Shown here: one piece after another, positions 4,611 through 53,962 of the stretch
Numbering within the stretch: position 1 is the first letter of the stretch
Layout: the number at the start of each line of letters is the position of its first letter
Origin: a virus
Lineage: Duplodnaviria; Heunggongvirae; Uroviricota; Caudoviricetes
DNA length: 64,000 nt
IMG/VR virus record: IMGVR_UViG_3300047560_002175
Span: 1 to 64,000 of that record
Reading direction: 5' to 3' (one strand)
Program-made: the position numbers and the translations under genes
Notes under the pieces: model-generated
Told to the model about the DNA's origin: nothing
The model's database searches: none
What the model saw: only the letters and a program-made list of their open reading frames with translations

Positions 4611-5124
4611 CTATTCTGTCATATTGGTGCATACTTAAAACTTTTCCAGTTGAACTTAACTTAATCAATCTTTCAGTAACATCGTGTAAGTCCATATCTG
4701 TTTGAGCATCTTCTCTTGCATACTCTAATAATCGAATTAGTAATGGTATATCCATTTTAACAATATCTGTTGGATTTTCTGTAGATTCAGTCGGTACAGC
4801 ACTGTAACCAGGTATAGCATCTTCCATTACTTTAGCTGCAATCATTTGAGCATAACTTTTGAGTTCTGCTTTTTGAGCAAAAACTTGTTCTTCTTGTTCA
4901 GCAGATGCCTCAGCCATGTATTTTTTAAATAATGATGGCTTTGATGGTTTCTTTTCAATTGGTTCAGCATAGTGCTGCATTGCCATTTGTACAGGCAATG
5001 CAACTTTATGCGGATTTGAACCTTCTGTAATGATAGACATGAATTTCTTCATATCGTTAGTATTTTCTACAGGAACAGACTCTTTAACTGAGTCCATTGC
5101 TTGTAGAATCTTTTTCATATCCAT
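4573..5124 (-). CDS. Hypothetical protein
   Basis: 183-aa ORF packed between neighbours on the same strand. Confidence 0.4.
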   Translation of the reverse strand: MDMKKILQAMDSVKESVPVENTNDMKKFMSIITEGSNPHKVALPVQMAMQHYAEPIEKKPSKPSLFKKYMAEASAEQEEQVFAQKAELKSYAQMIAAKVMEDAIPGYSAVPTESTENPTDIVKMDIPLLIRLLEYAREDAQTDMDLHDVTERLIKLSSTGKVLSMHQYDRIVGAPRQGKDNGF

Positions 5125-6935
5125 TATTTAATAACTCGTTCAGTGATCATTTTTAAACGATCTAATTCAGTTGATTCTTTATATGCACCGTAACCCATTC
5201 CTTGATTTAAGCCTTGAGTATATTTTTGTAATTCTTCTGGATGTTGTGAATAGTACAATCTACGTGCTGCATAATCTTGTTCTTTAGCAGCATTATCTGC
5301 ATCTTTTTGTGCCATTCTAGCATCAAATTGAGCTGAATGTTTATTGGCCATTTGATCAAAATTATCACTTTTGTTATCAAACCATTGTTGGGCACGTTCG
5401 TGATCTCGATCCATTTGTGCCCATTGTCTTTCATCAGCACCTGGTCCAAATAATCCTGGCATTCTTTGTTGCGCACGTTTCCAATCTGCATCTGAAATTG
5501 GTTTTCCACCTTGTGACATTGGCTCTTGTGACATTGGCTCAAATTGTGCGTTTTGTTTTTCTTGAGCGGCATATTCTTCAGGTGAAATATCATAACCCAT
5601 GTCATCTTTGAATTCATTCAATCCGCTATTTCTCATAATTGCATTAATTTCTGCTGACTCAGTTTTAGATTTTTTAATAGCGTTATCTACTGCACCTCTA
5701 TGTTCTTCTGGACCAGTTTCAAGTTTACCATCCTCGTCATAATCTTTGTCAGCTGTTTTTGCAGCTTTCTTTTCTTCTAAATAAGAAACAGATTCTTTAA
5801 TATTTTTCCACATTGCAGCAGCGGCGATTTTTTTACCTTTTTCGCCGCCACCTGCTTTGGCTGCAACTTTATCAAAGTTTTTGCCTGGTTTACCGATGTC
5901 TTTGCCTGCTTTTGCGTCTTTAGCTACTTTTGATCTTTCTTTAGAGGTAAGATGACCGCCAGGTTTTTTTTTACCTTCGTAAAATGACTCATCAGTTTTT
6001 GTTTCTTTTTTAGCGTAAGGATTGCCAGTATCTTGACTGTTTACACTTGATTTAGGTTTTTCTTTTTTTTCACCTGAATCTTTTTTAGGTTCTGATTTAG
6101 AACTAGAATCTTTTTTTGGTTGTGTTTTTTTAGCAGGTTGTTTTGGTGCAGATGATTCTGCAGATTTACTTCCTGGACGTTTAGGCTGTTCTTTTTTGGT
6201 GATAATTTCATCATCCATTGCGTTGCCTTTTAAGTTTTCTTCATCATCTGGAATGCCGTTGTGGTTAGCATCAACTTTTGATTGAACAAAGTTACGTAAG
6301 ATTCTATGTTTGTTTACTAATTTTTTAGTACTAGCTGGAAGTTGTTTCTCTACCATACCGGATCCACCACATTCTCCGCATGTATGCATAACACCTTCTT
6401 TAACTGCTTTTGGTTTTTCAAGTTTATCGGCTTGATCAATTTTAAGGGCTGCAAGTGTTTTTCTTGCTTCCATTAAAGCTTTTTTCATTTGTCTTTTTTC
6501 ACTTTCTGAGTACATATCGCTTTTCTCTATCTTATCGCCGTATTCGCTGAACTTCATTTCGTATTCTAAATAATGATAAACTGAAGAAATATAATCTGCA
6601 GCTTTGGTAATTTTAGCTTGAACCCAAGATTCAAACTGATCATTATCTTCAATTTTCTTAAATAATTTAACACTGTATTTTGCCAACTTAAACAAGTCAG
6701 CTTTAACCATTGCACCTTCATCATCACTTTCGATGTTATGATCTTTATGATCAATTTCTTTATGTGAAATATCAACACTTGGTGCAGGTAAATCGAATTT
6801 AGGCAAATCTAGTTCAAGACCTGCAAATTCTGAAAGTTTTTTTCTATGTTTCATGATAAACTCCGTTATAGTATATTTAGCTTCTTTTAATGGTTCCACC
6901 GGTAAATAAGTCTCCGCCTTCCATTTGTGCGCCAA
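5124..6935 (-). CDS. Large, highly charged Lys/Glu-rich hypothetical protein with a CGECGGSG motif
   Basis: 603-aa ORF with a long K/S/E-rich low-complexity central region. Confidence 0.45.
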   Translation of the reverse strand: MAHKWKAETYLPVEPLKEAKYTITEFIMKHRKKLSEFAGLELDLPKFDLPAPSVDISHKEIDHKDHNIESDDEGAMVKADLFKLAKYSVKLFKKIEDNDQFESWVQAKITKAADYISSVYHYLEYEMKFSEYGDKIEKSDMYSESEKRQMKKALMEARKTLAALKIDQADKLEKPKAVKEGVMHTCGECGGSGMVEKQLPASTKKLVNKHRILRNFVQSKVDANHNGIPDDEENLKGNAMDDEIITKKEQPKRPGSKSAESSAPKQPAKKTQPKKDSSSKSEPKKDSGEKKEKPKSSVNSQDTGNPYAKKETKTDESFYEGKKKPGGHLTSKERSKVAKDAKAGKDIGKPGKNFDKVAAKAGGGEKGKKIAAAAMWKNIKESVSYLEEKKAAKTADKDYDEDGKLETGPEEHRGAVDNAIKKSKTESAEINAIMRNSGLNEFKDDMGYDISPEEYAAQEKQNAQFEPMSQEPMSQGGKPISDADWKRAQQRMPGLFGPGADERQWAQMDRDHERAQQWFDNKSDNFDQMANKHSAQFDARMAQKDADNAAKEQDYAARRLYYSQHPEELQKYTQGLNQGMGYGAYKESTELDRLKMITERVIK

Positions 6936-8244
6936 ATAAATTACCTTTTTTTCCTTTTATATCTAAAGCATTAACTGCAGTACCGTCTTTCTTTTTTGGT
7001 TGTAGAGTTTTAGTTTGAATTACCTTTGTACCGCTCTTACCAGGTGATCCGCTGTATGCTTTCATTTTTCTATTTTTTCCAAGACTACCTACTGGATTTT
7101 CAACTGAACCAATATTTGCTGCAGTTGTATCACTTGCTGATTCAGCAAGTGGTAGTTTTGCATTGCATTGATCAAGATGAGTCTTTAATTCAGTATATAA
7201 TATTTTAATATATCTTTTGTACACTTTTTGATACTGTGGTTTAGGGTTTTGTCTAAAGAACTGATAATAATGTTCTGTATTGTCGTCCTTAGACATACCA
7301 AGATGTCCAGTCTTTGATAATTCATTAAGAATGGCTTGCATATTTGCAGCATGACTTTTTAAATCACGATATTGACTTTTAGATTTTCTAATAATAGACA
7401 CTGCAGAGTTATGTGCAAATGCTGGTATTTCTCTTTGATCAGCAAGATACAATTCAACTGTTCTTTTATCCATCGGACCGCTTGATACATTAGATTGTGT
7501 ACCTTGTGCAGTTTCTCCACGCTTTGCTACATAAGATTTAGTTTCATGATTTTCAGGATCTTTTTTTATTTGAATTACATGAGTTAGCTCGTGTATTAAA
7601 ACTGGAGTTAGTGAAGAAGCAATTGTTTCAGCTATGCTGTGACTGAAATTAGTTGGATCAAATGAATGAATAAATTCATTAAATTGCTCAATATCAGTAA
7701 CCTGTACTTGTGGCATTTTAACATTTACAAATGGTAGCCCTTTAGTTAGCAACTTATTTGCAATTGATGTTACAAAATTCAATAACGGAGTTCTAATCAA
7801 TTTGTAATTAAGAACAACCATTGGTATATTACCAAATAGTTCACCTGTGTTTTTCTCAGTTGCATACGCAGTTGCTTTCATTTCATCAAACTCTAATATT
7901 ACCATTAGTTGCATTATATCACTGGTGTGTCTCCCAAATTCTGCAGATAGGTTTTCAGCAATGCGCCCAACAGCAGCTTCACATAACAAATAAGCAAACT
8001 CTTTATTAGTAATTACTGAATTATTTGATACGGTAATGCCTGCTGGTATTTTTTTAGTATTGGGATTGTTTGATTGAACTTGAGATCGGGTTGAAGTAAT
8101 AGTAGTTCCATCAAATTGTATGTTATTTGATAAATCAACTTCGTTACCTGCATTATTATTGATTATAGATATAATTGCTGATTTTAATTGATCTGCATGT
8201 TGTGATAATGATATAGCTTCTGCTATAATTTCAGAGATTATCAT
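6877..8244 (-). CDS. Hypothetical protein with an HExxH motif (candidate Zn-metallopeptidase)
   Basis: VLIHELTHVIQ motif. 455-aa ORF. No further family assignment. Confidence 0.4.
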   Translation of the reverse strand: MIISEIIAEAISLSQHADQLKSAIISIINNNAGNEVDLSNNIQFDGTTITSTRSQVQSNNPNTKKIPAGITVSNNSVITNKEFAYLLCEAAVGRIAENLSAEFGRHTSDIMQLMVILEFDEMKATAYATEKNTGELFGNIPMVVLNYKLIRTPLLNFVTSIANKLLTKGLPFVNVKMPQVQVTDIEQFNEFIHSFDPTNFSHSIAETIASSLTPVLIHELTHVIQIKKDPENHETKSYVAKRGETAQGTQSNVSSGPMDKRTVELYLADQREIPAFAHNSAVSIIRKSKSQYRDLKSHAANMQAILNELSKTGHLGMSKDDNTEHYYQFFRQNPKPQYQKVYKRYIKILYTELKTHLDQCNAKLPLAESASDTTAANIGSVENPVGSLGKNRKMKAYSGSPGKSGTKVIQTKTLQPKKKDGTAVNALDIKGKKGNLFGAQMEGGDLFTGGTIKRS

Positions 8245-8501
8245 AACTTATTACCCCACAATTCAAACCATGCAGGAGTACCAGGTTTGATGTTATTTTC
8301 ACGCTGATACTTTCCACGCTCGTCGTTTATAAATGATTCTTGTTTTAGGTTAGCGCGGTATTCGTGTAGTCTTGCTTCAGCACCTAAACCACCTAGATAG
8401 CTTGCAATTTTTAATTCTTGTATTGGATCATCGGGCGCGAGAAAACAGTCATCAGGACTGTCTTGTATTATGTTTTCTGTTGTTATTCTATACTGTTTCA
8501 C
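8241..8501 (-). CDS. Hypothetical protein
   Basis: 86-aa ORF with overlapping stop/start with neighbours. Confidence 0.35.
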   Translation of the reverse strand: MKQYRITTENIIQDSPDDCFLAPDDPIQELKIASYLGGLGAEARLHEYRANLKQESFINDERGKYQRENNIKPGTPAWFELWGNKL

Positions 8502-8504
8502 ATT

Positions 8505-8918
8505 TTAAACCCCATATCTGTTTCGTTTTGCAGCAGCAACTGGGCTAATTTTATGAGTATCGGGCGATTCTGTTGATCTTTTAGATGATCCTACTGACTT
8601 TCTGCTAATGCCCATTTGTTTTGCTGCAGCATCGAGCATTTTATCATCTTCGTCTGAGAATGAGATTGTAACAAAATCACCACCTAATGATCCTTTATGA
8701 GTTACTGCTGCTTTGTTAGGAGCACTTGAGAGCATCACACCGTACTTGTAAGCACGATATGGGTCGTTATTGTTATTTAATGCAGGATATGCAGTTAAAC
8801 CAGGAACTGCATCTCTTGCAGATTTATGTAGTTTATTCTCACGAATGATAACTTGCATCTCAGCAATGTCACGTTCTAGTTGTTCTATATCTTCTTTTGT
8901 AATTTTTTTCATATTCAT
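8505..8918 (-). CDS. Hypothetical protein
   Basis: 137-aa ORF. Confidence 0.4.
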   Translation of the reverse strand: MNMKKITKEDIEQLERDIAEMQVIIRENKLHKSARDAVPGLTAYPALNNNNDPYRAYKYGVMLSSAPNKAAVTHKGSLGGDFVTISFSDEDDKMLDAAAKQMGISRKSVGSSKRSTESPDTHKISPVAAAKRNRYGV

Positions 8919-10624
8919 TCCAATGTACAGTTTAATCCCTCCCGTGTGGCTTGAAATAAAGTTTTACCGTCTACAGTAATTTCTTCATCTACACCCGTTA
9001 TTAGTTGGAAATTAATTTTGTCACCTAATTTAGCGTACTCTCTTGCTTGTGTGCTACTAACGTTTGTATCATTAGATCTGTCACCGCTACTGACAAACTT
9101 TAATACTACGTGTTCTCTACCATTTGGTCCTCGTACATAATCGGTTGTACGAGTTGGACCACTGTTCCAGTTATTTAATGCAGTTTCTAAACTATTATTA
9201 CCTGGGCCTAACCTATCACTTCCTGCAATAAATGTCATGTGTCTATAGCCTTTATCGTATAGCCAACATGCAGCTTTCCATGGATCTGTTACAAAATCTG
9301 ACACTATAAATTCAGCATATTCCGGATGAATTTTCTTAATAAACTCAGTCTTAATATCGTAATTTAATGGATCATGTTTTGGATCACATTTGTTACTAGC
9401 AAAAATATACGCATGATTCTTACCAAGATCTACAGTTTGTTGCATTACTTTTGTATGTCCAATAGTCGGCGGATTCATTCTACCAAAGCAAAAAACTGCC
9501 ATTGGCATATTGCTTTTTGTTTCAATTTCTTCCGCTGGTATTTTGTATTTTGAAAAGTTAGCACGACTAAATTCTAACCGATTAATGATCTTTAATTTAT
9601 CATTACCGGCTCCTATTACATAGCCTTCGTGACTTATAATACTATTTATAATAGGTTGAACGGCACTGTGCAGTTGTTGCTCGTCAATCTGTCGTTTAAT
9701 ATCTAATTTAAGATTAGATATAGCACTCCATATTGCCCATAATCCTATTATACCTCTTTGAATATCTGCATTAAAACTGCCATCTTTTCTACACAGTTTT
9801 TCTCGTACACTATGGGTAAATCGAGGCTGTGCAAATTCTAAAAACCGTTCAACAATATTAGTTTCCATATCACCAGAGTTTATCATTTTAGTAATAAATG
9901 GACTCATTGCTGCAATTATACATTTGCATTTAGCCGTAGTAATTTTAGCAATACAAGCGTCTACGTTGCTGGAATGCGTTGTTATTGCATCTTGTGCGCG
10001 TAAAAGTAATGTGTTGTTTACTGTTATATTTGGTTTATTAGGCATTTGAGTTGCAATAAATGTGATATCTTTGCAATTTGAAAATACATCAAACCCTGTA
10101 ATAGGTTCGTCGGCTGCGTTTAGCCCTGGAAAGAATGTGTGTACAGCAATACCGCCTACACTATTAGAAATTGATTGTCCTAAGTCACTATTACAATCGA
10201 CATGATATTCAACAGTGTTAGGTTTAAAGATAAATTGATTGTTAATACAAGTAGGAGTTCCTGTCCATAACAAATCACCCATATAATACGTGTCTGTTAC
10301 TTTTGGAATAATATTTTCTAATGCAGGACGTAGAATATCTTCTTTAGCCCATAAGTCGCTACGTAATGAATTTCGAGAATTGTCATAATCTCGAATAGTT
10401 GTAAAGTCAAGTTTGCCAGCAGCGATTTGTTTAAACATGTGTTTATCAACAAATACTAAATTACCATTTGGATCTCGACCAAAAACTATTGCAGGAAAGC
10501 CATCCCATTTAATAGTTAATGTATCAGTGTTAAAAGAAAGACTACTTAGTTCATTAACTGCTCTCTGAGCTCCTTTAGATCCTTCTAAAATAATTAGATC
10601 TTCAGGGTGTGCAATTCCTGCCAT
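8915..10624 (-). CDS. Two-domain protein: N-terminal KxDG nucleotidyltransferase (ligase-like) motif plus C-terminal cytidylyltransferase-like (NMNAT/NadD-like) domain
   Basis: TIKWDGFPAIVFGRD near the N-terminus (KxDG at residue 39). C-terminal FGRMNPPTIGH (H-x-G-H nucleotidyltransferase motif) and VSSTQAREY (ISSTxIR-like). Confidence 0.5.
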   Translation of the reverse strand: MAGIAHPEDLIILEGSKGAQRAVNELSSLSFNTDTLTIKWDGFPAIVFGRDPNGNLVFVDKHMFKQIAAGKLDFTTIRDYDNSRNSLRSDLWAKEDILRPALENIIPKVTDTYYMGDLLWTGTPTCINNQFIFKPNTVEYHVDCNSDLGQSISNSVGGIAVHTFFPGLNAADEPITGFDVFSNCKDITFIATQMPNKPNITVNNTLLLRAQDAITTHSSNVDACIAKITTAKCKCIIAAMSPFITKMINSGDMETNIVERFLEFAQPRFTHSVREKLCRKDGSFNADIQRGIIGLWAIWSAISNLKLDIKRQIDEQQLHSAVQPIINSIISHEGYVIGAGNDKLKIINRLEFSRANFSKYKIPAEEIETKSNMPMAVFCFGRMNPPTIGHTKVMQQTVDLGKNHAYIFASNKCDPKHDPLNYDIKTEFIKKIHPEYAEFIVSDFVTDPWKAACWLYDKGYRHMTFIAGSDRLGPGNNSLETALNNWNSGPTRTTDYVRGPNGREHVVLKFVSSGDRSNDTNVSSTQAREYAKLGDKINFQLITGVDEEITVDGKTLFQATREGLNCTLE

Positions 10625-11044: not shown

Positions 11045-11650
11045 CTAATTAAGAATCCTATCGATTGATAACTTAATATTGCCTAAATGTAATTTAACAA
11101 ATAAAAGAGTGTGTTCTCCTTTAACATATAATTGTGAGCCAGCATCATATCTATTTGGTTTTACAGATAACAACCGTTCAGTTTTTGGTTGAAGTTTAAT
11201 TTTGTCATTGTTGTTAGACCATTCTATAAACTCAGGATTAAGATTAGCTACTCCACCGAGCGTAACTCTAAAATCATATGGAGTATTTGGCATGTATACC
11301 ATTCCTCGTTCTAATCCATCTGGTGGAATACCAATTGAATCAACAAACCTTGGTATTAAATCTCGAATAGCAGTAATATCATTGTAATTGTTAGTATAGA
11401 TAATTAACGTTGGTAAATTAACTCTTGTTGCAAAGTTTTCCATATTCATTATATGTTCATATAGAAGAGTAGTTGCGTTATAATGATCTGGATAACGAAT
11501 ACTATCTATTTTAGAAACCATCTTAAGTCGTTTAGCATATTTAGACTTGTCATGTCCTTTAAAGATATCGCCATTGGCGAGAGTCAATACGATATTGTAT
11601 TGAAACTCGCCTTTGTACAATTTCTTAACAGTGGTAAACTTAATTGTCAT
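11045..11650 (-). CDS. Hypothetical protein
   Basis: 201-aa ORF. Confidence 0.4.
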   Translation of the reverse strand: MTIKFTTVKKLYKGEFQYNIVLTLANGDIFKGHDKSKYAKRLKMVSKIDSIRYPDHYNATTLLYEHIMNMENFATRVNLPTLIIYTNNYNDITAIRDLIPRFVDSIGIPPDGLERGMVYMPNTPYDFRVTLGGVANLNPEFIEWSNNNDKIKLQPKTERLLSVKPNRYDAGSQLYVKGEHTLLFVKLHLGNIKLSIDRILN

Positions 11651-13926
11651 ACTGCTTGATTAACTGCCCGTACATGATCAAGTGTTAGTACTGGCCCTTT
11701 AGTAATTACTTTAGGTTTTGCTGTTAATGAAATCTTGTCATCAACAACACTAATTGTTAACCAACCGCCGTTTTTAAGATCACCAAACAACATCATTTTA
11801 GCAAGATCGCGCTTGATCTCTTTATCAATTACACGATGTAGCGGTCTAGCACCCATCTTAGGATCAAAGCCTTTTTCTAACAACCAATTAGTTGCAGTTT
11901 TGTCAACTTTAATACGTACACCTTTGTCTTTAACTTGTTCACGAACTTCATCCATAAACTTGTTAATAACTTTAACCATTGAATCTTTACCTAATTTGCT
12001 AAAGGTAATAATACCGTCAAGTCTGTTACGGAACTCAGGAGTTAAAAACTTCTTAAGTTCTGCATCTGAATAGTCTTTTTCTTGAGTACCAAAGCCAATT
12101 TGATTCTTTTCTGCAGCTTGAGCACCAGCATTAGTGGTTAGAATTAGTACAATATGTCGACAATCTGCTTGTCTGCCGTTTGAACCTGTAATAAAACCAT
12201 TGTCCATCATTTGCAATAGTACAGTTGATACATCCGGATGTGACTTTTCAATCTCATCAAACAGCAATACTGCGTTAGGATTTTCTTGAATTTGTGTGAT
12301 CAATAACCCTGCACTGTCTTCAAAGCCAACATAACCCGGAGGACTACCAATTAATTTACTAATACTATGCTTTTCTTGATACTCAGACATATCAAAACGT
12401 AACAATTTAGTACTCAAGTGTTTAGCAAGTGCCTTAGCAGTTTCAGTTTTACCGCAACCTGTAGGCCCCATAAACACAAAACTACCAATTGGTTTATTTT
12501 CAGGTTTTAAACCTGCTTGTGCAACCATGATCTTATCAACAATTTCAGTAATTGCAGTGTCTTGGCCAAATACTTCTGTTTCAAGGGATTCTTGTAATGT
12601 GGCAATAGCACCGGTTTCAGTTTGCATAATTTGTTCAATAGGCATATTGATCATTTTTGCTAATTCAAACTGAATTTCAGGCTCAGATACGATTCTGTGT
12701 TCAGCAAGTTTTAAGTTAAATCGCGAACATGCACAGTCAATTAAGTCAATAGCTTTGTCAGGTAGCTTTTTATCCGCTTGATATTTAACAGATAATTTAA
12801 TTGCAGCCTGTAATGCATCGTCTTTGATTTTAAGTTTATGATGTCCTTCGTAGTATTTCTTAATACCTTTAAGAATCTGCAAAGTCATTTCTTGTGTAGG
12901 TTCATCAACAGTAATACGTTGGAATCTACGCATCAATGCACGATCTTTCTCAAAATGCTTACGATATTCATCCCATGTAGTTGACGCAATAACTTTGATG
13001 TTACCTTTACTAAGTGCAGGTTTCATCATATTAGCCAAGTCATTAGATGAATTACCTGAAGCACCTGCACCACTAATCATGTGTGCTTCGTCGATAAACA
13101 ATACGCATTTGCCTAATTTTTGTAGTGCTTTGATTACTTGTTTAAAGCGTTCTTCAAAGTCGCCTCTGTACTTAGATCCTGCTAACATTGCAGCAATATC
13201 AAGATTGTACACTGTATAATCTAATAAGAAATCTGGCACTGCTTCGTTGACAATATTATAAGCAAGCCCTTCAGCAATTGCAGTTTTACCTACACCTGGA
13301 TCACCTACCATAATAATATTATTTTTACTACGACGACCTAATGCTAGTGCAATATGCTCTAACTCGTCTTCTCTACCAATAACAGGATCAATCTTTTTAT
13401 TCTTAACTTCTTCATTTAAGTTAGTAGTATAAGATTGCAACGCCTTGTTAGTTGATTGATTTTTATTATCACCTACGTCATCGCCCATGTCAGTTGAATT
13501 CTGCATGTATTCGTTGAACTTTTCTTTAGTGATATTTACTTGTGATATATAGTAAAATGCCCATGTGCGCTTTTCACCTAACATTGCTAAGAAAAAGTTA
13601 GATGGTTCTATTTTTTGCCCACCATTAAACAATACCTGTGTAAATGATCTATTCAACACACGTTCAACTGCTTGTGTTTTTTTAGGTTTAACAACAACGT
13701 CAACTGTAGTAATTTCTTGACATTTAGTTTGTAAATGATTAAGTAATAAATTTTTCAAATAGTTTACGTCTGCCCCAACTCCTTGTAAAGCATTAGTAAA
13801 TGAACTATCTTCCATAAGCATCGAGCATAGAACATGTTCTAATGTTACATACTCATGGTGCATATTTTTTGCAGAGATAATAGCTTTGTCAAAAATCTCT
13901 TGTAATTTTTCGCTTGGTTCAACCAT
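11647..13926 (-). CDS. clpA: ClpA-like double AAA+ Clp ATPase (chaperone/unfoldase)
   Basis: Clp_N-like N-terminus. Two Walker A boxes, GDPGVGKTAIAEG and GPTGCGKTETAKAL. 759 aa with no long ClpB middle domain. Confidence 0.85.
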   Translation of the reverse strand: MVEPSEKLQEIFDKAIISAKNMHHEYVTLEHVLCSMLMEDSSFTNALQGVGADVNYLKNLLLNHLQTKCQEITTVDVVVKPKKTQAVERVLNRSFTQVLFNGGQKIEPSNFFLAMLGEKRTWAFYYISQVNITKEKFNEYMQNSTDMGDDVGDNKNQSTNKALQSYTTNLNEEVKNKKIDPVIGREDELEHIALALGRRSKNNIIMVGDPGVGKTAIAEGLAYNIVNEAVPDFLLDYTVYNLDIAAMLAGSKYRGDFEERFKQVIKALQKLGKCVLFIDEAHMISGAGASGNSSNDLANMMKPALSKGNIKVIASTTWDEYRKHFEKDRALMRRFQRITVDEPTQEMTLQILKGIKKYYEGHHKLKIKDDALQAAIKLSVKYQADKKLPDKAIDLIDCACSRFNLKLAEHRIVSEPEIQFELAKMINMPIEQIMQTETGAIATLQESLETEVFGQDTAITEIVDKIMVAQAGLKPENKPIGSFVFMGPTGCGKTETAKALAKHLSTKLLRFDMSEYQEKHSISKLIGSPPGYVGFEDSAGLLITQIQENPNAVLLFDEIEKSHPDVSTVLLQMMDNGFITGSNGRQADCRHIVLILTTNAGAQAAEKNQIGFGTQEKDYSDAELKKFLTPEFRNRLDGIITFSKLGKDSMVKVINKFMDEVREQVKDKGVRIKVDKTATNWLLEKGFDPKMGARPLHRVIDKEIKRDLAKMMLFGDLKNGGWLTISVVDDKISLTAKPKVITKGPVLTLDHVRAVNQAV

Positions 13927-13960
13927 TATTAGATCCTTGTGTAGTAGTTAATAAAGCAAT

Positions 13961-13989
13961 ATTATAAAGTATTTTAATTATAAAGTCAA
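13961..13989 (-). promoter_or_regulatory. Sigma70-type promoter (TTGACT-17-TATAAT) for clpA, overlapping the dnaJ terminator hairpin
   Basis: Minus strand reads TTGACTTTATAATTAAAATACTTTATAAT. The AGTCAAAT-A-ATTTGACT inverted repeat covers the -35 box. Confidence 0.55.
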
Positions 13990-14837
13990 ATAATTTGACT
14001 GTTTATTTGTTGCAATTGTGCCACCAATTCTGGTTTGGTAACTGCAGGGGTTTTTATTTTTACAACAGTAACAAATCTTCCAATCTGTCTATTGTGTAAA
14101 TTAGTAAACCCGCCGTGCGCTTTTGCATATTCTGTACCAGGTTGTACTCCTGGTTTAATAGTAATGTTATGTTTTTCACCTATTAAGTTGGTAACTTCTT
14201 TAACACAACCAATCATTGCTTCAATTGGTGAAATTTCAATTGAAGTAAATATGTCATTACCTTCGCGTCTAAAATTAGGATCAGGTATTACATTTATAGT
14301 TACATTTAAATTACCACGTGGAACACCCGGCTGTGAGTTATCTCCTAAGCCGTCATATCTAATAGTATCTCCGTTATCAATACCTGCAGGTACGTTAATT
14401 ACAACATGCTGTGGTTCTCCGCTAGGCAAGTTAATATTAGCATCTATTTGTTTTCCTTTAAATGTATCTGCTAATGTGACTTGAATTTGTAAATTTAAAT
14501 CTCGGTTACGGCGACCTTGTTGGAATCCATGTGCAAAGTGTTGTCCAAAAATATCATGCATATTAAACTGGAAGCCTCCACCGAAACTGTTACTAAATGG
14601 TCCTCCTCCACCAAATCCACCAAATCCACCAAATGGATTTCCATTTTGTTGCATATCATATTCTTGGCGTTTTTGTGGATCACTTAATGTATCATATGCT
14701 ACTGAAATATCTTTAAATGTAGCTTGGTCTCCACCTTTGTCGGGATGATGTTTATTTGCTAATGAACGATATGCTTTTTTAATATCGTCTTGTGATGCAT
14801 CTTTTGATACACCTAATTTTGAATAAAAGTCTGTCAT
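13986..14837 (-). CDS. dnaJ: DnaJ-class J-domain co-chaperone without a Zn-finger (CbpA/Sis1-like)
   Basis: DFYSKLGV...YRSLANKHHPDKGGD J-domain with HPD. G/F-rich linker GGFGGFGGGG. C-terminal substrate-binding domains. Confidence 0.85.
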   Translation of the reverse strand: MTDFYSKLGVSKDASQDDIKKAYRSLANKHHPDKGGDQATFKDISVAYDTLSDPQKRQEYDMQQNGNPFGGFGGFGGGGPFSNSFGGGFQFNMHDIFGQHFAHGFQQGRRNRDLNLQIQVTLADTFKGKQIDANINLPSGEPQHVVINVPAGIDNGDTIRYDGLGDNSQPGVPRGNLNVTINVIPDPNFRREGNDIFTSIEISPIEAMIGCVKEVTNLIGEKHNITIKPGVQPGTEYAKAHGGFTNLHNRQIGRFVTVVKIKTPAVTKPELVAQLQQINSQII

Positions 14838-24101: not shown

Positions 24102-24701
24102 TTATGGTTTTACATATTTTCCAAGATATCGCATAAACACTGTAACCCCGTGATCATTTGACCAGGCTTCTAATACAACGTAAGATTCTTTACTTACATG
24201 CAATGTAGTTGGGAAACTAATGTCTTTAATTACGTACCCGTTATTTTGTGTTGTGAACACAGTAACATCAACACCTGCTGCAATAGTAGGAACAGTAGTT
24301 AAATGAACACGCACTGATGCATATTGTCCTGTAGCAGGCCAATTAACAAATGCTAATGTAGTATCAGAGTTAATAGTTAATGTTAATTGTTGTGATATTC
24401 CTGAATCTAAGTTTACAGTTGCAACGTTTGATGCAATTGATCCAGTGTAGCTTGTACCGTATAATTTGTTAAAATTTCCATTTACAATTGAACTACCATT
24501 GATATCATTTTCAACTGGGTCTTCGTTGCTATCTAATGTACTTTTTAATACTGCTCGATTTTCAAATAATTGAAGTTCGATTTTTGCTTGATCTAAAGCT
24601 GTTTTGATTCTTAAGAAATTATCACGAAACCCTTGGCTATCGTTATCAACACCTGCGATTGGATAATTAGTAAGAATTGTGTTAGTTATAATACTGCTCA
24701 T
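24102..24701 (-). CDS. Probable virion structural protein (fibre/baseplate-associated)
   Basis: 199-aa ORF coupled (ATGA) to the downstream Ig-domain protein. Confidence 0.4.
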   Translation of the reverse strand: MSSIITNTILTNYPIAGVDNDSQGFRDNFLRIKTALDQAKIELQLFENRAVLKSTLDSNEDPVENDINGSSIVNGNFNKLYGTSYTGSIASNVATVNLDSGISQQLTLTINSDTTLAFVNWPATGQYASVRVHLTTVPTIAAGVDVTVFTTQNNGYVIKDISFPTTLHVSKESYVVLEAWSNDHGVTVFMRYLGKYVKP

Positions 24702-27070
24702 ATGTTGTTCCTGTTATTAGTGAATATAATGTATTTATCAGCATATTTGTTTGAAGATCGAATAATAATTCTATCTATCAAATAATCTAATAAATTAAAT
24801 TTAAAATTACTGTGTTTGATATTAAGTAAAACTTGATCTGCAGATCCAACTTTACAATAACACAATGGAACTGCTAAAGTATATCCAAGTTCTGTCCGTG
24901 TGTTTGGTTGAATTGATCTCATCCACAGGGGTAATAATTCATTGTCTGTCGTACTAATTAGACTTAAACTCTGTTGCCATCTTGTTACACTACTTGGATA
25001 ATACGTGTTGTTATTGACAATAGTATTTCGTGATAAATGATTTACTAATGAATCAATTGGATCGATCATGTGAATATAAATTACCTCATATACTGCTGTA
25101 TGTGTACCAGGTATCAATGCTACAGCTTTCTTTACTTCACCAAATCGAAATCTTTTATTTTTATAATTAGTCTGCATTTGATTAATATAATCTGATACAT
25201 CGGCTTCTTGTATACCTGCATAAATTAACATTGATAAATCTGTTTGCACACCAAATGCACGATCGTATGGACGATATATTAAATTTGGTTCAAAAATCGA
25301 TTGGTTTGTAATAAAGCCATCCCACAATATTCTATCATTAAGATCCATAAATGGTTTAACTACTACATTATCAAAGTTTGAGTGTGTAGGTGTTTTTATA
25401 GTTATTGAGAAGGTACGTTCAGTTGCGCTGTAATAAAACTGATCACGTGCTTCAACTGTAAATTTAAATTGCCGATCAATTGTAGTTTCACCGCCATCAT
25501 ATATTGTATCAGTGTCTAATCGATAATCAAATGTAGTCAATCCCTTACGACTAAATTGTTTATCAAATGTAGTAGTAGGTGATTGATCAAATGTAGTAAG
25601 CCCGTCATCCATCGCCGGAATTGAAATTACTGTTGTGAATTTAGTAATACCGTTAATGTTAAAGGTAGTTTCTCCATTATCAAAACTAATTAAAGTCGTC
25701 TTTACATCAAAATAGGTATCATCACTATCAAATCTTAAATTACTTGATAATAATGGAACTACTCCCATTATTTCACCGTCATATGACATAGTTAGCCCTG
25801 GCGGTAATGAACCAGCAACTACTGAATGAATTACTACAGCATCTTCAATTGTACTTGTTGCCTGTACACTAAACATCGATGGATAATCAGTTCGTATTTG
25901 TCCTAAATCGTTAGATCCAGCCCAAGTAATAACACTGTCTATTTCACCGATAAGTTTAACAGTAAAGGTTCTCGAAGAACTATTAGTTTCAGTTTTATTC
26001 TCATCTCCGTGGGTTGATGCTGTTACTGTAAATGAGTAGGTAGTTGTAATAGCAGGCTGGTATGGAACATAACCATATATTTCACCAGTGATAACATCAA
26101 ATGACAATCCAGTAGGTAATTTTGTAATATCATCAATTGAATAGTAAACTATACCAACGCTATAAACATCTAAAACTATAGTAACATAATTATTAGCTCG
26201 ATATGTTCCTAAGTCACTTGGAGTAATCCATACTGGAGCTTGTAGATATGTTACATCAGCTGTAAACAACCCAACATTTGAAATTAATTCGTCAGCATCT
26301 GCTCTAAAATAATCTTCGTTAACTACATATATTTCAAATTTACGTTTTGGAGTTAATATTCCATCTGTAACAGAAACAATAAATTCAAATTTACGATTAA
26401 TAGATTTAACTTTTCGTACAGCAAGATAATCGTACACTGCATAATCAAATGGAATAGTATCATAACCGTTTTGTTTTGGAGGAATAGCAAAGTCAAATGG
26501 GCCTACATCGTAATAACCGTTGTCATATGATCCAGATCCGCTTGCTGGTGTGATTGCAGTTACTTCGTTAACAACACCAACAATTCTACCATCAGGTGTT
26601 AGTGTAAGACCTGATGGTAATTCTCCATCACCTCGATTAATGAAAAAAGATATTTCTTGTCCTGCAGATAAATCGTAATCAATTGCATTGAGTTGATAAT
26701 TTACAACCGAATTATCAATTACAAATAATTGTTTTGCAGGACCAATATCAAGTAATCCAGCATTAGTTAGAATAATTGGAGCATCTGGCCCAACAACTGT
26801 TACTTCAAATGTTCTGTCAGCAATTAAATTATTGTATTTTGCACGAATACAAAAGTTATAGATTGTATCATCTGTTACTTCAACTGGTGCTCCGATTAGT
26901 CGATTTCCTTGTAATTTTAGGCCGCGAGGCAACGACCCAGTTATAATTGAATACGATACATTCAAATCGTCAGTTACTGGTAATTTTATATCAACATCAA
27001 TTCCCTCGGCGAGGGTTTCAAGGTTAATTTTATTTAAGGTGGAATTTTGTGTCCAAACATTAAGTGCCAT
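24698..27070 (-). CDS. Structural protein with about four putative-Ig (dystroglycan/cadherin-like) domains
   Basis: Repeated motifs ITGSLPRGLKLQGNRLIGAP, GELPSGLTLTPDGRIVGVV, AGSLPPGLTMSYDGEIMGVV. ATAAATA motif upstream. Confidence 0.5.
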   Translation of the reverse strand: MALNVWTQNSTLNKINLETLAEGIDVDIKLPVTDDLNVSYSIITGSLPRGLKLQGNRLIGAPVEVTDDTIYNFCIRAKYNNLIADRTFEVTVVGPDAPIILTNAGLLDIGPAKQLFVIDNSVVNYQLNAIDYDLSAGQEISFFINRGDGELPSGLTLTPDGRIVGVVNEVTAITPASGSGSYDNGYYDVGPFDFAIPPKQNGYDTIPFDYAVYDYLAVRKVKSINRKFEFIVSVTDGILTPKRKFEIYVVNEDYFRADADELISNVGLFTADVTYLQAPVWITPSDLGTYRANNYVTIVLDVYSVGIVYYSIDDITKLPTGLSFDVITGEIYGYVPYQPAITTTYSFTVTASTHGDENKTETNSSSRTFTVKLIGEIDSVITWAGSNDLGQIRTDYPSMFSVQATSTIEDAVVIHSVVAGSLPPGLTMSYDGEIMGVVPLLSSNLRFDSDDTYFDVKTTLISFDNGETTFNINGITKFTTVISIPAMDDGLTTFDQSPTTTFDKQFSRKGLTTFDYRLDTDTIYDGGETTIDRQFKFTVEARDQFYYSATERTFSITIKTPTHSNFDNVVVKPFMDLNDRILWDGFITNQSIFEPNLIYRPYDRAFGVQTDLSMLIYAGIQEADVSDYINQMQTNYKNKRFRFGEVKKAVALIPGTHTAVYEVIYIHMIDPIDSLVNHLSRNTIVNNNTYYPSSVTRWQQSLSLISTTDNELLPLWMRSIQPNTRTELGYTLAVPLCYCKVGSADQVLLNIKHSNFKFNLLDYLIDRIIIRSSNKYADKYIIFTNNRNNI

Positions 27071-29084: not shown

Positions 29085-32000
29085 ATGGCAAAAAAAATAA
29101 TTGAAATTGGTGTTCAAGGGAATGACGGTACTGGCGACAGTATACGTGAAGCGTTTAGTAAAGTTAATGATAACTTTAGTGAAATTTATGCAGTATTTAA
29201 GAGTGAGGGTAAAATTAATTTTAGTGATCTATCTGATGGATGTACTTACATCAGTGATCAGCTTATCACCGCAAGTCACGATGGAACTACGTTAATTGCA
29301 AGAGATTTAGTACCAGGGAATGGTATATTCATATCTGCAACATCGTCGGCTATTACAATTGAAGCACAAGCAGCTTCATTATCAAATGATTTAAAACCAG
29401 AGATATCAGCACCATTTAATGCTAATAAATTTGCAATTGGTCGTTTGTCGGATCCAAGCGAAGACCTTGTAGATCTTTTTAACTTAGTATACGATATACC
29501 AACTACATTAGATGAGTTACCAGTAACTGTGGGATATGCAAATAGACGATATGCACAGTTAACTGAATCAGGTGTTATTGGTGTTTTAGAAAATGGGGTT
29601 ATAGTTCCAAGTCCTATACAAACAAGAGCAGAACCTACAACTCCTGATATTACAAACCCATTGTACGATCCAACATTAACTGGTAATTACTTGTCAACTG
29701 AAGTATTACCACGTAAGGACGTAGTATACCGTGGTGGTGATAAGATGACCGGTGCGTTAATCTTAAATGATCACCCAGGAGCAATGGCTGGAACAGTTGG
29801 TGCAATGTTTGATTCTGATCTACAGGCAGCAACTGCATTTTATGTAGATAACAAAACATTCACAAGTAATGTTAATTTATATGTTTCTGCGGCATCAGGT
29901 GACGATTTGCAACTTAGAACACCTGCAGGGAAAGAAGGTAGATATTGGAATTATGCGTTTAAATCTATCGGTGCTGCATTGTTACATGCTGAGTCATTGA
30001 TTAATTTAGCAAGTCAAGAACCTGGTCCTTACAAACAACGTATTTCTTATACACTTGGAGCAGATCAAACATTTTCAACAGTTCAACGTGTAAGATTAAC
30101 CGGTGGTGAATCTACAACACCTGGCTATGTTGCTGCATTTAACTTATTACAAGCTAATCGGTCATTTATTCAATCAGAAACAATTTCATATATTAATAAA
30201 AAGTATGTGAATAAATTTTCTTATAATAAAACACTATTTTCAAACAGAATAGAGTTTTTAATTAAAGCAGTATGTGATGATTTATTGTTAGGTGCTACTG
30301 ATCCAGATACATCAGTACCTGGAACAAATTATAGATCAATTCGGTCTGCTGTAAAATATTTACATGATGATCCATATTTAGAGCAATCGATTCAATGGTT
30401 ATCTGCTATTGAGTTTATTAGAAATCAAATTATTGAGTTTACATACGATGGACCTGCATTGCAAGATTATACTACTCAGTTAGTTACTGCATTATGCTAT
30501 GATTTGATTTTTTCTTCAAACTATCAAAGTATTCAAGCTGGTATTGCATTTAAAAATGCCGGAACTAAAGTAAGTGCAGAACAATTAGGTTCAATGCTTA
30601 CTATTAAACCTATTAACATTTTATCTGTAACAGTTAACGGTGGTGTTGTAACACTTAATTTCTTAACTCAATCATCGGCATTCTTATTAAACAGTGAAAT
30701 ATTAATTGATGCAGTGTTTACAAACGTTGACGATGAAACAAATGAAATCATAATTAAACCGAGTGAAACTGTTAACAATGTTACTACTATTACTTCTGTT
30801 ACTATTGATTCTGCATCAACTGTTTCATCTGTTAGTTTTAGAAAAGGTGGATATCCATTTATTAACGATGGCACATACACTGTAACAGGGTCGTTTGATC
30901 GTAAGAACTTAATTAATCTGTTGTTATTAACACCAGGTATTACAACTTATCCAAGTTCTGCAGTTGATATTACTGCTAATGCTACAATAGTGCGTGATAT
31001 AGTGTTAACTGGGACTATCCCAGAACCGGTTATGCCTACACCAAACAATCCACCAGCAGGGTATAATGTTCTTGGTCATGTTCATGCAAAATCGTTGTTA
31101 TTAGATAACATTTCATTTATTCAAGCTGAAGTAGTTGCTTATCTTAGTTCAGAATTCCCAGATGTATCATATAATCGAGAATTATGTTTGCGAGATGTGA
31201 AATATATCATTTGGAGTTTAGCATATGATTTAACATATGGCGGTAATAGTCAAAGTGTATATGCTGGTAAAAAATATTGGAATAATTCAACCAACTTTAT
31301 CATTGCATCTGAAAAAACCGCATGTGTAAGCGTAATTAACTATATCAATACATTGGCTCAAGCAGTCATTATAAACAGTGCGACTACTACGACCTATCAA
31401 CAATCAGTTAGACAGTACAGAAATGATACATTAACTAATGGTAATGTAGCATCAGCATCAATTGCAAGCAATGTTGCTACGATTGCAGCAATTGTGACCA
31501 GTTTAAGTAATGTTCCTGCTATTATAAATCCAAGTGTTACAACTGGTTTAGCAGAAATGCAAACTATTTTTGATAGAATTACTGCAGATATTGGAAATTA
31601 CACAGATGACACAAAATCTACATCGACAATATGGTATTTAGATAGTTATTTCCCAGTAATTAAGACATTAACTGATAAAGATAAGATTAATAACTTGTTT
31701 GATCAGATAATATCTATTGTATCCGGTGGTGTTTATCCGTCAGTAGTACCAGTTTATCCAATTGTAACTATTCCAACACCAGTTAACGTAAATGTTACTG
31801 ATGCATGGATTGTTCAAGCTACCGGATTGCTTGATCAAACAGCAATTAATACCATTGCACAATCTACAAATTCTTATATTGCGTCAGTTTATACAACAAT
31901 TACCTATAATTCAACTACTTTACAAAATGATATTAAAGATTTGTTGTTTGCAGCAATTTACGATTTAAAATATGGTGGTACATTGGCTAGTTTTGATGTT

Positions 32001-35000
32001 GCAACTACATTTACATTGTTAGGATCTAATGTTAATACTCAAAAAACAATAGTTCAAGCTGCAATTGATCATGCATGGTCTCTTACAAATACTTTATTAG
32101 TTGGAAATATAACTGGAGATACTTCAAATCATACAGTTAACAAATTGCGTGAAAAATTCACATTTGCTTCTTCATATTTTAGCAATAATCCGCCAATACA
32201 AGGCGACGATATTACAGTATCATTATTCTCAACTACTACATATGACAATGCTACTAAATTAAGAACCTTAATTTTAAATAGTTTATCTACTATTTCAAAC
32301 GATACCTTAACTTACATTGATTCAGTGTTTAAAGGTGGGTTTACTTATGATGAATCTTTATGTTATAGAGATTTAGGTTTGATTATTGATGCAATGTCAA
32401 TTGATTTAATCACTGGTGGTACATATCAATCTATAAATGCAGGTAAAAGTTTTTATAAAAACTCAAGTGCAAGAGCAGTTTCAATTGGTACACAATATAC
32501 ACAGTCATTTGATGGTATAATGTTTGCTCAATCAGTAGCATTGCAAGTATTAAATAAACAACTTAAGAATAGATACCAATTATTACCGCAAATTACACAA
32601 TTTGCAACAACAAATCCATCTAATTTAACATATATTAGCACAGGCGAATTACCAACTGATAGTATCGGTGTTACAGGCGATCGTTCATTGCCAGTTTCTC
32701 AAAATGCAATTGACACATTTGTTGCAAACATGTTAAGATTAACTGATATTATACAGTACGGTATAAGCGTTGCAGCAACACCGTCGTTTGGTTCAGGTAT
32801 TTGGAATTTATTAATTGACAATGGCGGGAGAGGCTATGTAGATCAAGGTTCTCCGTCAAATAACGACTTATTCCCAGCTAAAGTAATTGTAGGTGTTGGT
32901 ACTTCATCTATTGCTGCATCCAATGCGTATGGAAGTATTGTTACATATACATACGGCAGTGATATTTCCGGTGCACCTTTAGTGTTAGGCGATGTTGATA
33001 CACTTCAAGTACGGTTAACAAAGCCTGGATTCTTTAAATCTGCTTACACTTTAGTAGATCTTAACTGGTCTTTTGTTGGAACTACTGTTACAGTTACTAA
33101 AGCTAACCATACAATTACACAAGGTACTCGTATAATTGTAAACTTTGCCCAATTCTTTGGGTCTGGATCTAATGCCCCAATTGGAACTTGGATTGTATCG
33201 GCAGTAACAACTAACACATTTTCATTTGTAACAAGTTTAGCACCAATTGGAACTAGTACATTAATGACTGTAACGGTTCAAGTAGGTGAACAAATTGAAT
33301 TTGGTGAAACTGTTCGTGATTTGCAACTAACAATGTTCATTGAAAGTGGCATTTATTACGAAGATTATCCATTGAGAGTGTCATCAAACATATCTATTAA
33401 GGGTGACGAGTTCCGTAGAACTATAATTAGACCAAAAGATCGTATTAGTCAAAGCCCATGGCGTAAGATTTTCTTCTATCGTGATGCAATTGTTGATGCT
33501 TTAGAGGTAGGTTTAATTGATTATACCGGAACTAACTATGCTCCGAGCGGAATTACAGCGTCTTTAGACGGTGTAACTAATAAAATTGTGGTAACATTGA
33601 GCGGTAATTTCCAAGCACCATTGAGTTGGGTTGGTAAAGTGTTTGCTGATACTAATACTACAAACGGAAATGCAAAACGCGGTAAAGCTGTAGTTGACTC
33701 TGTTAGTGGTAATACTATAAATTGTACAGTAATTTACCCATTTAGCGTAAGTGGATTATATGCTGCCGGTAGTTGGAAGCTATTTGGTACTATAAATTAC
33801 GGTCGTCACTACTTAACTAACCCATTAGATGTAACAAGTACGGCTAAAAACAACAAAGATATCGACGTTTTATTATGTAATGAAGGTACACGTATTGTTG
33901 GTGTAACATTCCAAGGTCATGGCGGGTTTGCTATGGTACTTGATCCAGAAGGAAACATCAAAACTAAGTCACCGTATATTCAAGAATGCGCAAGTTTCAC
34001 ACAAAGTAACAATTATAAGAGATTTGCAGGTGGACAATACATTGACGGATTTGCAGGAAGACTATACGGTAACATCATAGGTGTTTCTAATGACGGTATT
34101 ACTGTAACTGTACAAGGTGAAACTAATAGTGGTTTAGATATTAGACCTCCACAACCACCATGTTCGTTCTATGTACGTGGAAAACGTTATCAAATTGATG
34201 ATATTGTAAGTTTTGATGCAACTACTGCAACTGTAGTATTAACATTGGATAAAACTACACCGTATTTACATACAACATCTGGTGTTTTAACATACGACGA
34301 TGTTAAAGCAAAACGTGATATCGGTTATGTTTTGGATGCAATTGCAAGCGATGCTGCATTAGGTACAACATATCGTTCAGTACATGCTGGTCGTTCTTTC
34401 TTAAAAATATATTCTAGTCGTTTAGTGGGAGATTTACAAGATCTTACTATTGCAGGTATTAATAAAGCATTAGAATTGTCAAATACAACACTTAGCGGTA
34501 GTACATATTCAAGTATTAGAACTCAATATGCCACTAATATTGCTATTATTACTTCTATGATTTCAAATGGAGTTAATGCAACACCAACTATTGTATGGTC
34601 TACTAGTTCAACAGCTGATGATAACTTAGCTCGTAATATTATTCAAAACAATAAAGCATTTATTAAGTCAGAAATTAGTGCATATATCGCACAATACTTT
34701 ACTTTAGGTGATTACCCAAGATACAATGTATTAACAAGTGAACGAGATGTTGGTTATGTACTTGACGCTATGACATATGACATGTTCTATGGTGGTGATA
34801 GTCAAACAAAAGATAGTGCAGAAGCATTCTTTTACAATAATACATCGTATATACCTGATGAAAATGTAATTTGTTCAGCTGCGTATACCAGATTAAAAGC
34901 TGTATTAGCTGCTGTAGTTGCGGGATCACCAGTTGTTGTAAGTTCAGGTAACAGTGTTTCACAAATACTAACAAATCCGCCAGCATCATCAGCCGGTTAT

Positions 35001-53712: not shown

Positions 53713-53962
53713 TTGCCATAATAATTTCTTTATTAGGTCCGCAGGAATAAAATTCTACTTCGTAAAGATCTCTCGCGTGACCTAAGTATGTACACCCAAG
53801 AGGTTTTGAAATTGCTCGTCTTTGATCAGTGTATTTTACAGTATTAAATGTTAATCCTCCAACTACTGCTAACCCAACCATTACAACTGTTACTAATGCG
53901 GATTGAAATATCAGTCCGCCTAATACTCCTAAGAAAATTATTAGTATCATTGTTAAAATCAT
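53678..53962 (-). CDS. Small two-TM membrane protein
   Basis: 94-aa ORF overlapping both neighbours. Confidence 0.35.
   Translation of the reverse strand: MILTMILIIFLGVLGGLIFQSALVTVVMVGLAVVGGLTFNTVKYTDQRRAISKPLGCTYLGHARDLYEVEFYSCGPNKEIIMASAGQQPKYKGE

Follow-up and report, generated by a model that had tools for sequence, protein, structure and literature searches.

A complete open reading frame in a 64,000-nucleotide (nt) stretch of phage DNA (positions 1 to 64,000 of IMG/VR record IMGVR_UViG_3300047560_002175, Caudoviricetes; hereafter, the window) encodes a 569-amino acid (aa) protein. Sequence alignments and structural models showed that it combines two predicted nucleotidyltransferase folds, both with intact signature residues, that have been coupled by evolution. 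The N-terminal half corresponds to the DUF6267 family, whose predicted fold resembles that of polynucleotide ligases, and the C-terminal half to a HIGH-type nucleotidyltransferase resembling nicotinamide mononucleotide (NMN) adenylyltransferases (NMNATs). Our favoured reading, to which we give a probability of about 0.5, is that the protein is a bifunctional enzyme in which a polynucleotide ligase is joined to an adenylyltransferase whose role is to make or recycle an A-pp-N donor or intermediate. We infer its substrates, the coupling of its domains and the biological role of the fusion from the evidence presented below.

The two domains are encoded by a single gene

The gene runs from ATG to stop on the minus strand, and its stop codon overlaps the start of the downstream gene (Table 1). 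Among about 5.8 billion proteins searched, 454 relatives were found; the best 120 of them (47-93% identity, 566-982 aa) covered 99-100% of the query in a single chain, and in the longer fused relatives the extra length was always C-terminal. With 120 such relatives spanning the query as one polypeptide, a frameshift artefact can be discarded, and the two halves are one gene, as a preliminary description made from the sequence alone had held. The contigs of the fused relatives reach 381 kb, which identifies them as jumbo phages. Neither a megablast of the region against phage genomes nor a look-up of the exact protein gave any match, so that the genome of the window is absent from those collections.

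Table 1. Location of the fusion gene, its domains and motifs, and other genes of the window
Feature	Position	Strand	Remarks
86-aa conserved small gene	8241-8501	-	Adjoins DUF6267 in jumbo-phage clade
137-aa gene	8505-8918	-	Homologous to C-terminal extension of fused relatives P0025/27/28/32/37
569-aa gene, DUF6267 ligase-like domain + HIGH-type nucleotidyltransferase	8915-10624	-	Complete, ATG to stop
C-terminal domain, residues 376-569	8918-9499	-	HIGH (T-x-G-H) Rossmann-type nucleotidyltransferase, NMNAT/PPAT-like
Second HIGH signature (ISxTxxR type), S523-S-T-Q-A-R528	9041-9058	-	S523, R528 invariant
Nucleotide-binding motif G381-R-M-N-P-P-T387-I-G-H390	9455-9484	-	G, R, P, P, G, H invariant
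N-terminal domain, residues 1-360	9545-10624	-	Pfam DUF6267, predicted ligase/capping-type nucleotidyltransferase fold
Motifs IV and V, H-E333-G-Y-V ... K343-L-K345-I-I-N-R349	9578-9628	-	E333, G334, K345 invariant
All-helical insert, residues ~204-316 (~110 residues)	9677-10015	-	From secondary structure of the model; poorly conserved
Motif I, T37-L/I-K39-W-D41-G42	10499-10516	-	K39, predicted adenylylated lysine; K, D, G invariant
ClpA/ClpB-like double-AAA+ chaperone (759 aa) and DnaJ homologue (283 aa)	11647-14837	-	Just upstream of the fusion gene
790-aa He_PIG Ig-domain protein	24698-27070	-	
4041-aa giant open reading frame	29085-41210	+	No Pfam match at all
1788-aa giant open reading frame	43276-48642	+	fn3
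gp30-like ATP-dependent DNA ligase, 454 aa	51436-52800	-	tblastn 2e-42; Pfam adenylation, OB and N-terminal domains
UvdE-type UV damage endonuclease	53959-54987	-	Adjoins the DNA ligase
DUF2828/DUF7788 protein	61642-63051	-	

The predicted fold of the DUF6267 domain is closest to RNA ligases

Residues 5-360 matched DUF6267 (PF19782) with 134.7 bits against a cut-off of 27 (E 6.7e-39; model positions 5-375/376); apart from this family, no Pfam family, PHROG function or PDB sequence matched the region. The preliminary description had pointed to a TIKWDG sequence with its lysine at residue 39, and this reading of the sequence was confirmed. A lone K-x-D-G is weak evidence, since by our estimate about 0.1 chance occurrences are expected per 569 aa. 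We took it as meaningful because K39, D41 and G42 are invariant across an alignment of 122 divergent sequences, each just 20-27% identical to the query; the other invariant residues are H6, G49, K61, D117, Y140, H162, T163, E333, G334, K345, F352 and N356.

We then modelled residues 1-365 separately with AlphaFold, with 60 relatives, some fused and others stand-alone, in the input alignment. The model (predicted local distance difference test, pLDDT, 88.6; predicted template modelling score, pTM, 0.85) presented a nucleotidyltransferase (ATP-grasp-like) fold, in agreement with the ligase-like domain initially proposed, and its nearest structural neighbours were RNA ligases. Structural comparison scores were 8.3 for Naegleria Rnl5, 7.6 and 7.2 for T4 Rnl2, 7.5 for REL1, 7.2 for Trl1, 6.6 for T4 Rnl1 and 6.4-6.5 for archaeal Rnl3; DNA ligases scored 5.5-6.7, and capping enzymes, lower in the list, about 4.5-4.9. 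Ligases were also enriched among, and dominated, the top Foldseek matches of the model in PDB, none of which was significant.

The preliminary description had recommended looking for ligase motifs III, IV and V. Candidates are present in ligase order (G116-D117, F133-x-P-N-T..Y140, E333-G-x-V336 and K343-x-K345, equivalences assigned by eye), and those for motifs IV and V resemble T4 Rnl2, with EGYVIG in the place of EGYVLK and KLK in the place of KCK; the candidate for motif III holds an Asp instead of a Glu (MGDL, containing G116-D117, versus FGEF). Motif I reads KWDG where T4 Rnl2 has KIHGTN (K35), and motif IIIa FIFKPNT where it has FYVFD. The region of motif IIIa is separated from motif IV by the helical insert, which the model makes a candidate substrate-binding subdomain. 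Overall, it is highly probable that the DUF6267 domain belongs to the superfamily of lysyl-nucleoside monophosphate (NMP) polynucleotide ligases and capping enzymes, as a very divergent member.

The C-terminal domain is a HIGH-superfamily nucleotidyltransferase

A separate model of residues 366-569, based on an alignment with 42 relatives, reached a pLDDT of 91.7 and showed the Rossmann-like fold of the HIGH family. Its highest structural comparison scores corresponded to phosphopantetheine adenylyltransferase (PPAT; 11.7) and to NadM, archaeal NMNAT and nicotinic acid mononucleotide adenylyltransferases (NaMNATs; 11.2-11.5), followed by FAD synthetase (9.5), TmcAL (9.0), ATP sulfurylase (8.3) and glycerol-3-phosphate cytidylyltransferase (7.9). 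The two motifs on which an NMNAT-type domain had been proposed were both located. FGRMNPPTIGH lies at residues 380-390, where it reads T387-I-G-H390, that is, a T-x-G-H variant of the H-x-G-H announced, and VSSTQAR at residues 522-528. The pattern G-R-x-x-P-P-x-x-G-H is invariant in the alignments of the domain, and one relative carries the classical 'PPHAGH' form.

Profile searches pointed in the same direction. The five best PDB matches of a 21-sequence profile of the domain were archaeal NMNATs (E 0.004-0.024), including those of M. jannaschii (E 0.004), whose GRFQPFHKGH aligns with the family G-R-F-N-P-P-T-x-G-H, and M. thermautotrophicum (E 0.023). The NCBIfam matches were to NMNAT models alone, weak and below threshold, and the level of the curated NMNAT equivalogs was not reached (TIGR00482, 19.2 bits against a cut-off of 112; others weaker). 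The Pfam family CTP_transf_like (PF01467) matched the query with 17.1 bits, just below the cut-off of 21, which was passed by P-TIM40_183 (33.7 bits) and several other homologues. From sequence and model, we conclude that the C-terminal domain is a nucleotidyltransferase of the HIGH superfamily, most like NMNAT. The TagD-like 'cytidyltransferase' label found in databases is the least supported, as GCT and CCT types are not the closest to this domain.

DUF6267 and HIGH domains form a widespread phage module

The DUF6267 profile matched 3186 representatives at 50% clustering, 1119 of them with E below 1e-30, and relatives were found in marine and freshwater phages, T4-like cyanophages among them. 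In cellular genomes, the 22 matches from prokaryotic genome collections were contigs of metagenome-assembled genomes or phage-like contigs. The DUF6267 protein of P-TIM40 matched 470 phage records, 455 of which are cyanophages. When the whole 569-aa protein was used as a tblastn query against T4-like cyanophages, the alignment spanned two adjacent co-oriented genes annotated as 'hypothetical protein' and 'cytidyltransferase', as in P-TIM40_182/183 and S-SZBM1 gp135/136.

To describe the arrangement of both genes we collected 105 loci, 86 of which had enough downstream sequence to be scored. The HIGH gene was fused to DUF6267 in 11 loci, was the next gene on the same strand in 31, lay within 1.5 kb downstream in 18 and further away in 1, and was absent from 25. 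Thus, DUF6267 and HIGH are kept together on one strand in 61 of the 86 loci. Moreover, among 150 family representatives, fusions occurred in both orders in independent lineages (six DUF6267-HIGH and three HIGH-DUF6267). That the two domains are fused in either order and are otherwise persistently adjacent strongly indicates that they are functionally linked, and the finding of separate adjacent genes in cyanophages therefore supports this link rather than refuting it. As for the preliminary proposal that the architecture was undescribed, no description was found in the literature, and the module is nonetheless widespread instead of rare. Its recurrence across phages points to a chemistry for joining or repairing nucleic acids that has not been described.

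HIGH partners frequently carry additional domains, namely a Pol-beta nucleotidyltransferase, DUF192 with HNH, DUF5824 or pterin-4a-carbinolamine dehydratase (proteins P0099 and P0118; loci L088, L096, L098 and L002, the latter being Melnitz gene 17). Such a multidomain composition recalls the 'polyvalent protein' pattern seen in phage genes of conflict.

A second type of partner was found in a clade without a nearby HIGH gene. Here, a ~260-aa domain with the Pol-beta/Pol-X-like signature LGS(T/V)G....SGD(I/M)D(I/V)A followed by VQTD occurs on either side of DUF6267, being fused to one of its ends or encoded by an adjacent gene immediately upstream. The counterpart of this GS..SGD signature in DNA polymerase beta is GSFRRGAESSGDMD. 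The association was present in 24 loci (the domain was seen in loci L038-L063, L004, L034-L037 and L069, and in protein P0316), and a Pol-beta-like gene also precedes the fused DUF6267-HIGH gene in several jumbo contigs. The assignment rests on the motif plus sub-threshold Polbeta and DNA_pol_B_thumb matches; by Pfam, the partner is not PF10127/RlaP. Hidden Markov model and motif searches found no gene for this partner in the window.

Genome context of the fusion gene

The window resembles a T4-related jumbo phage, with a family B DNA polymerase, a clamp-loader ATPase, UvdE, and ClpA/B-like and DnaJ-like chaperones. Since a canonical gp30-like DNA ligase is encoded in this same window, the 569-aa fusion would be a second, specialised ligase-type enzyme.

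Two small genes, neither of which received a family assignment, lie next to the fusion gene. The 137-aa gene is kept beside the DUF6267-HIGH gene in related contigs, and its product is likely an accessory partner of the fusion; the sequence ISPVAxxKRNxYGV at its tail is found again in other proteins of the neighbourhood. The 86-aa gene is found, in a distant clade (L054-L059), directly upstream of Pol-beta-like::DUF6267 fusions. Further along the same strand (5124-6935), a lysine-rich low-complexity product of 603 aa contains at residues ~70-127 a motif of ~55 residues, ..ESWVQAKITKAADYISSVYHYLEY.., shared with the products of genes that adjoin the DUF6267/HIGH module in unrelated phage clades. 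When Pfam and PHROGs were applied to ten flanking genes and ten conserved neighbour families, almost nothing was annotated. The window contains no tRNA genes, and the 4041-aa, 1788-aa and 790-aa products are presumably virion or fibre proteins.

Regarding transcription, a promoter that matches the sigma-70 consensus perfectly or nearly so lies ahead of each of the ClpA/ClpB-like and DnaJ genes (TTGACA-17-TATAAT at 14904-14876; 11/12 match at 13989-13961), and a strong terminator at 2458-2433 closes the minus-strand operon containing the fusion gene, so that the whole looks like one 12-kb operon. A TATAAT-type element also lies directly upstream of the DUF6267 gene in cyanophage loci. Judging from these sequence elements, the promoter types suggest early or middle expression of DUF6267 genes. 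In cyanomyovirus-type loci (e.g. L001 3915-3985, L065, L075, L083, L093 and L100), a promoter-like GTGkCAC is followed, after ~25 nt, by a TATAATA ending 5-8 nt before the DUF6267 start codon, which points to a very short leader and to a promoter dedicated to this gene and not of the late type.

The HIGH protein of cyanophage S-SZBM1 (L007 6176-8665), labelled 'cytidylyltransferase', has been detected in purified virions, as has the 457-aa protein encoded after its gene (PMC9146016). The HIGH homologue of phage PA5oct (L006 4959-5531) is located among structural genes verified by mass spectrometry. The S-SZBM1 proteomics and the PA5oct context suggest an enzyme that is packaged in the virion and injected; this is not supported here, because the fusion gene belongs to an operon headed by consensus sigma-70 promoters. 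Early or middle-type promoters indeed sit uneasily with the virion report of the cyanophage protein.

A model for the activity of the fusion protein

According to the favoured reading, enzyme-AMP would arise by attack of K39 on an adenylate donor at its alpha-phosphate, AMP would move from K39 to a 5′-phosphate end to generate A-pp-N, and a 3′-OH would then attack this A-pp-N end, sealing the break. The functions of ligase motifs III, IV and V would fall to D117, E333 and K343/K345, and the helical insert may replace the oligonucleotide/oligosaccharide-binding (OB) and C-terminal domains by which other ligases hold their substrate. The HIGH domain, in turn, would transfer an NMP from a nucleoside triphosphate (AMP from ATP) to a phosphate acceptor through no covalent intermediate, giving A-pp-X. 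Because both chemistries make or consume A-pp-N compounds, we propose that the ligase obtains its adenylate donor, whether newly made or recycled, from the HIGH domain, or else that this domain handles the adenylylated end itself. By analogy with T4 Rnl2, which exists beside gp30, the probable task of the fusion is to seal breaks of the RNA or RNA/DNA type early in infection.

Nicotinamide adenine dinucleotide (NAD+) has the structure A-pp-(nicotinamide riboside), and ligation that depends on it releases NMN as the leaving group, which NMNAT combines with ATP to give NAD+ again; the adenylylated 5′ end of a ligation intermediate is chemically the same kind of molecule. In the simplest version of the model, which we put forward tentatively and regard as rather doubtful, the HIGH domain would regenerate an NAD+-type donor from NMN and ATP. 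Alternatively, it may adenylylate the 5′ end itself, or de-adenylylate it by pyrophosphorolysis. A bolder formulation, in our opinion unlikely, has two forms: either the HIGH domain would act on nucleic-acid ends and not on free metabolites (adenylylating a 5′-phosphate, converting an abortive A-pp-N end back to ATP by pyrophosphorolysis, or adding an NMN-type cap), or DUF6267 would be an NAD+-using ligase that lacks domain Ia and has its own NMN-to-NAD+ recycler. If true, an end-acting HIGH domain or a self-recycling NAD+ ligase would represent a new way of activating polynucleotide ends or of ligating them, with lysine-AMP and HIGH-type chemistry brought to bear on one substrate by a gene pair that most marine cyanomyoviruses carry.

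Several observations weigh against the bifunctional ligase. No link from DUF6267 to ligases appeared in phmmer or in three profile searches against PDB, hhalign against T4 Rnl2 gave a probability of 0.1% with both shallow and deep profiles, and Foldseek found nothing significant for the N-terminal domain in PDB (best E 0.18). Motif III carries an Asp where ligases carry a Glu, the DUF6267 protein has no OB domain, and the 569-aa protein has no LigA-type NAD-binding domain Ia. Coupling is not obligatory either, because each domain also occurs without the other: loci of clade (c) have no HIGH gene, and PA5oct has a HIGH gene alone. Finally, kinase, phosphatase and 2H end-healing genes were not seen in the annotated neighbourhoods, for which reason the substrates are likely breaks with 3′-OH and 5′-phosphate ends.

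Alternative explanations

We had first favoured the idea that the fusion is a replication and repair DNA ligase, the 'missing gp30' of T4-like cyanophages, which would seal nicks left by Okazaki fragments or repair, with a Pol-beta/Pol-X-like partner that fills gaps and an NMNAT-like domain that regenerates NAD+. Homologues of gp30 and RNase H are reportedly missing from cyanomyoviruses (PMC2984593), and the hit lists of gp30 and DUF6267 were complementary, as tblastn with gp30 matched 2645 phage records with no cyanophage name among the ten most frequent organisms and DUF6267 was found in 455 cyanophage records. Location is also suggestive: in T4-like marine phages the DUF6267 gene has gp41 helicase/UvsX/DNA polymerase on one side and primase on the other, and in the jumbo clade the family B polymerase is only a few kb away. 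In addition, DUF6267 is fused in some clades to a GS..SGD[IM]D domain with a weak DNA_pol_B_thumb match, and nicks with 3′-OH and 5′-phosphate need no end-healing enzymes. However, the canonical ATP-dependent ligase of the window means that the fusion is not the sole or default DNA ligase here, and for this reason the idea was demoted to a rival that we now find rather unlikely. The DUF6267 model is, besides, closest to RNA ligases, no OB or other DNA-clamping domain is present, and the Pol-beta-like assignment relies on a motif and sub-threshold matches only.

The frequent multidomain nature of the HIGH partners, and the existence of phages in which DUF6267 or HIGH occurs alone, would also fit a polyvalent protein in which an NAD+ or nucleotide-cofactor salvage enzyme, auxiliary metabolic or anti-defence in nature, is attached to an unrelated ligase-like enzyme with no mechanistic coupling. 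The NMNATs of phages are known to reconstitute NAD+ (PMC9503650), and the presence of the cyanophage HIGH protein in virions agrees with this possibility. Yet the co-occurrence of both domains on one strand in most informative loci and the fusions that arose in both orders argue against mere juxtaposition, and the NadV/Nampt partner that normally accompanies phage NMNATs was seen in no annotated neighbourhood, all of which makes us consider this explanation quite improbable. It might finally be that the N-terminal domain is no ligase-type enzyme at all, that K-x-D-G and the likeness in fold are fortuitous or vestigial, and that DUF6267 is a structural or binding protein. Given that the model is confident and that the residues invariant throughout the family fall exactly at ligase motif positions, we see very little chance of this being the case.

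Significance and comparison with known systems

DUF6267 is found in essentially all T4-like cyanophages sequenced, which are among the most abundant viruses of the ocean, and the family is large, ecologically prominent and experimentally tractable. If the ligase assignment is true, cyanophages would gain a ligase they were thought to lack (PMC2984593), a supposed metabolic gene would be re-read as part of a nucleic-acid transaction, and the ligase superfamily would acquire a new, very divergent branch with an unprecedented partner. Divergent ligases are, moreover, useful as reagents when their specificity for cofactors or ends is unusual. In the literature we found no paper mentioning DUF6267/PF19782 or a DUF6267-HIGH architecture; published overviews of RNA repair and NAD systems in phages cover RlaP-ligase and NadM/NadR/NadV modules and not this pair.

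Compared with the nick-sealing ATP-dependent RNA ligases T4 Rnl2, Naegleria Rnl5 and kinetoplastid REL1, DUF6267 has no detectable sequence similarity, and the helical insert inside its nucleotidyltransferase domain replaces the C-terminal domain of Rnl2 and the N-terminal OB domain of Rnl5. None of these three ligases is fused to a HIGH nucleotidyltransferase, unlike the 569-aa protein. ATP-dependent DNA ligases (T4 gp30, Chlorella virus, T7) have an OB domain that the 569-aa protein lacks, and NAD+-dependent LigA is built of domain Ia, OB, Zn finger, helix-hairpin-helix and BRCT domains, a composition not found in our protein. Archaeal/NadM-type NMNATs and PPAT show 10-18% identity to the C-terminal domain, in which a Thr replaces the first His, and the Nudix or kinase partner that NadM and NadR carry is missing from the fusion.

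The cyanomyovirus gene pairs of P-TIM40 and S-SZBM1 are direct homologues of the two halves, of the same families and likewise adjacent and co-oriented; there, the halves are two polypeptides, with ~25-30% identity to the window protein. The second gene of this pair, the 'cytidyltransferase' core gene, is regarded in the literature as TagD-like and metabolic, with no role assigned to it (PMC9146016). The association of RlaP with RNA ligases (RlaP is described in PMC7824862 and PMC12776372) and the LigD modules are similar to the DUF6267/Pol-beta-like loci in that a ligase is linked to a nucleotidyltransferase of Pol-beta type that might trim or fill ends ahead of sealing, whereas the partner in the window is a HIGH-type enzyme, which cannot polymerise. 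The components of the fusion come from known superfamilies, and it is the pairing of DUF6267 with a HIGH domain that is new. Just as T4 carries Rnl1 and Rnl2 beside gp30, the phage of the window carries the fusion beside its gp30-like ligase.

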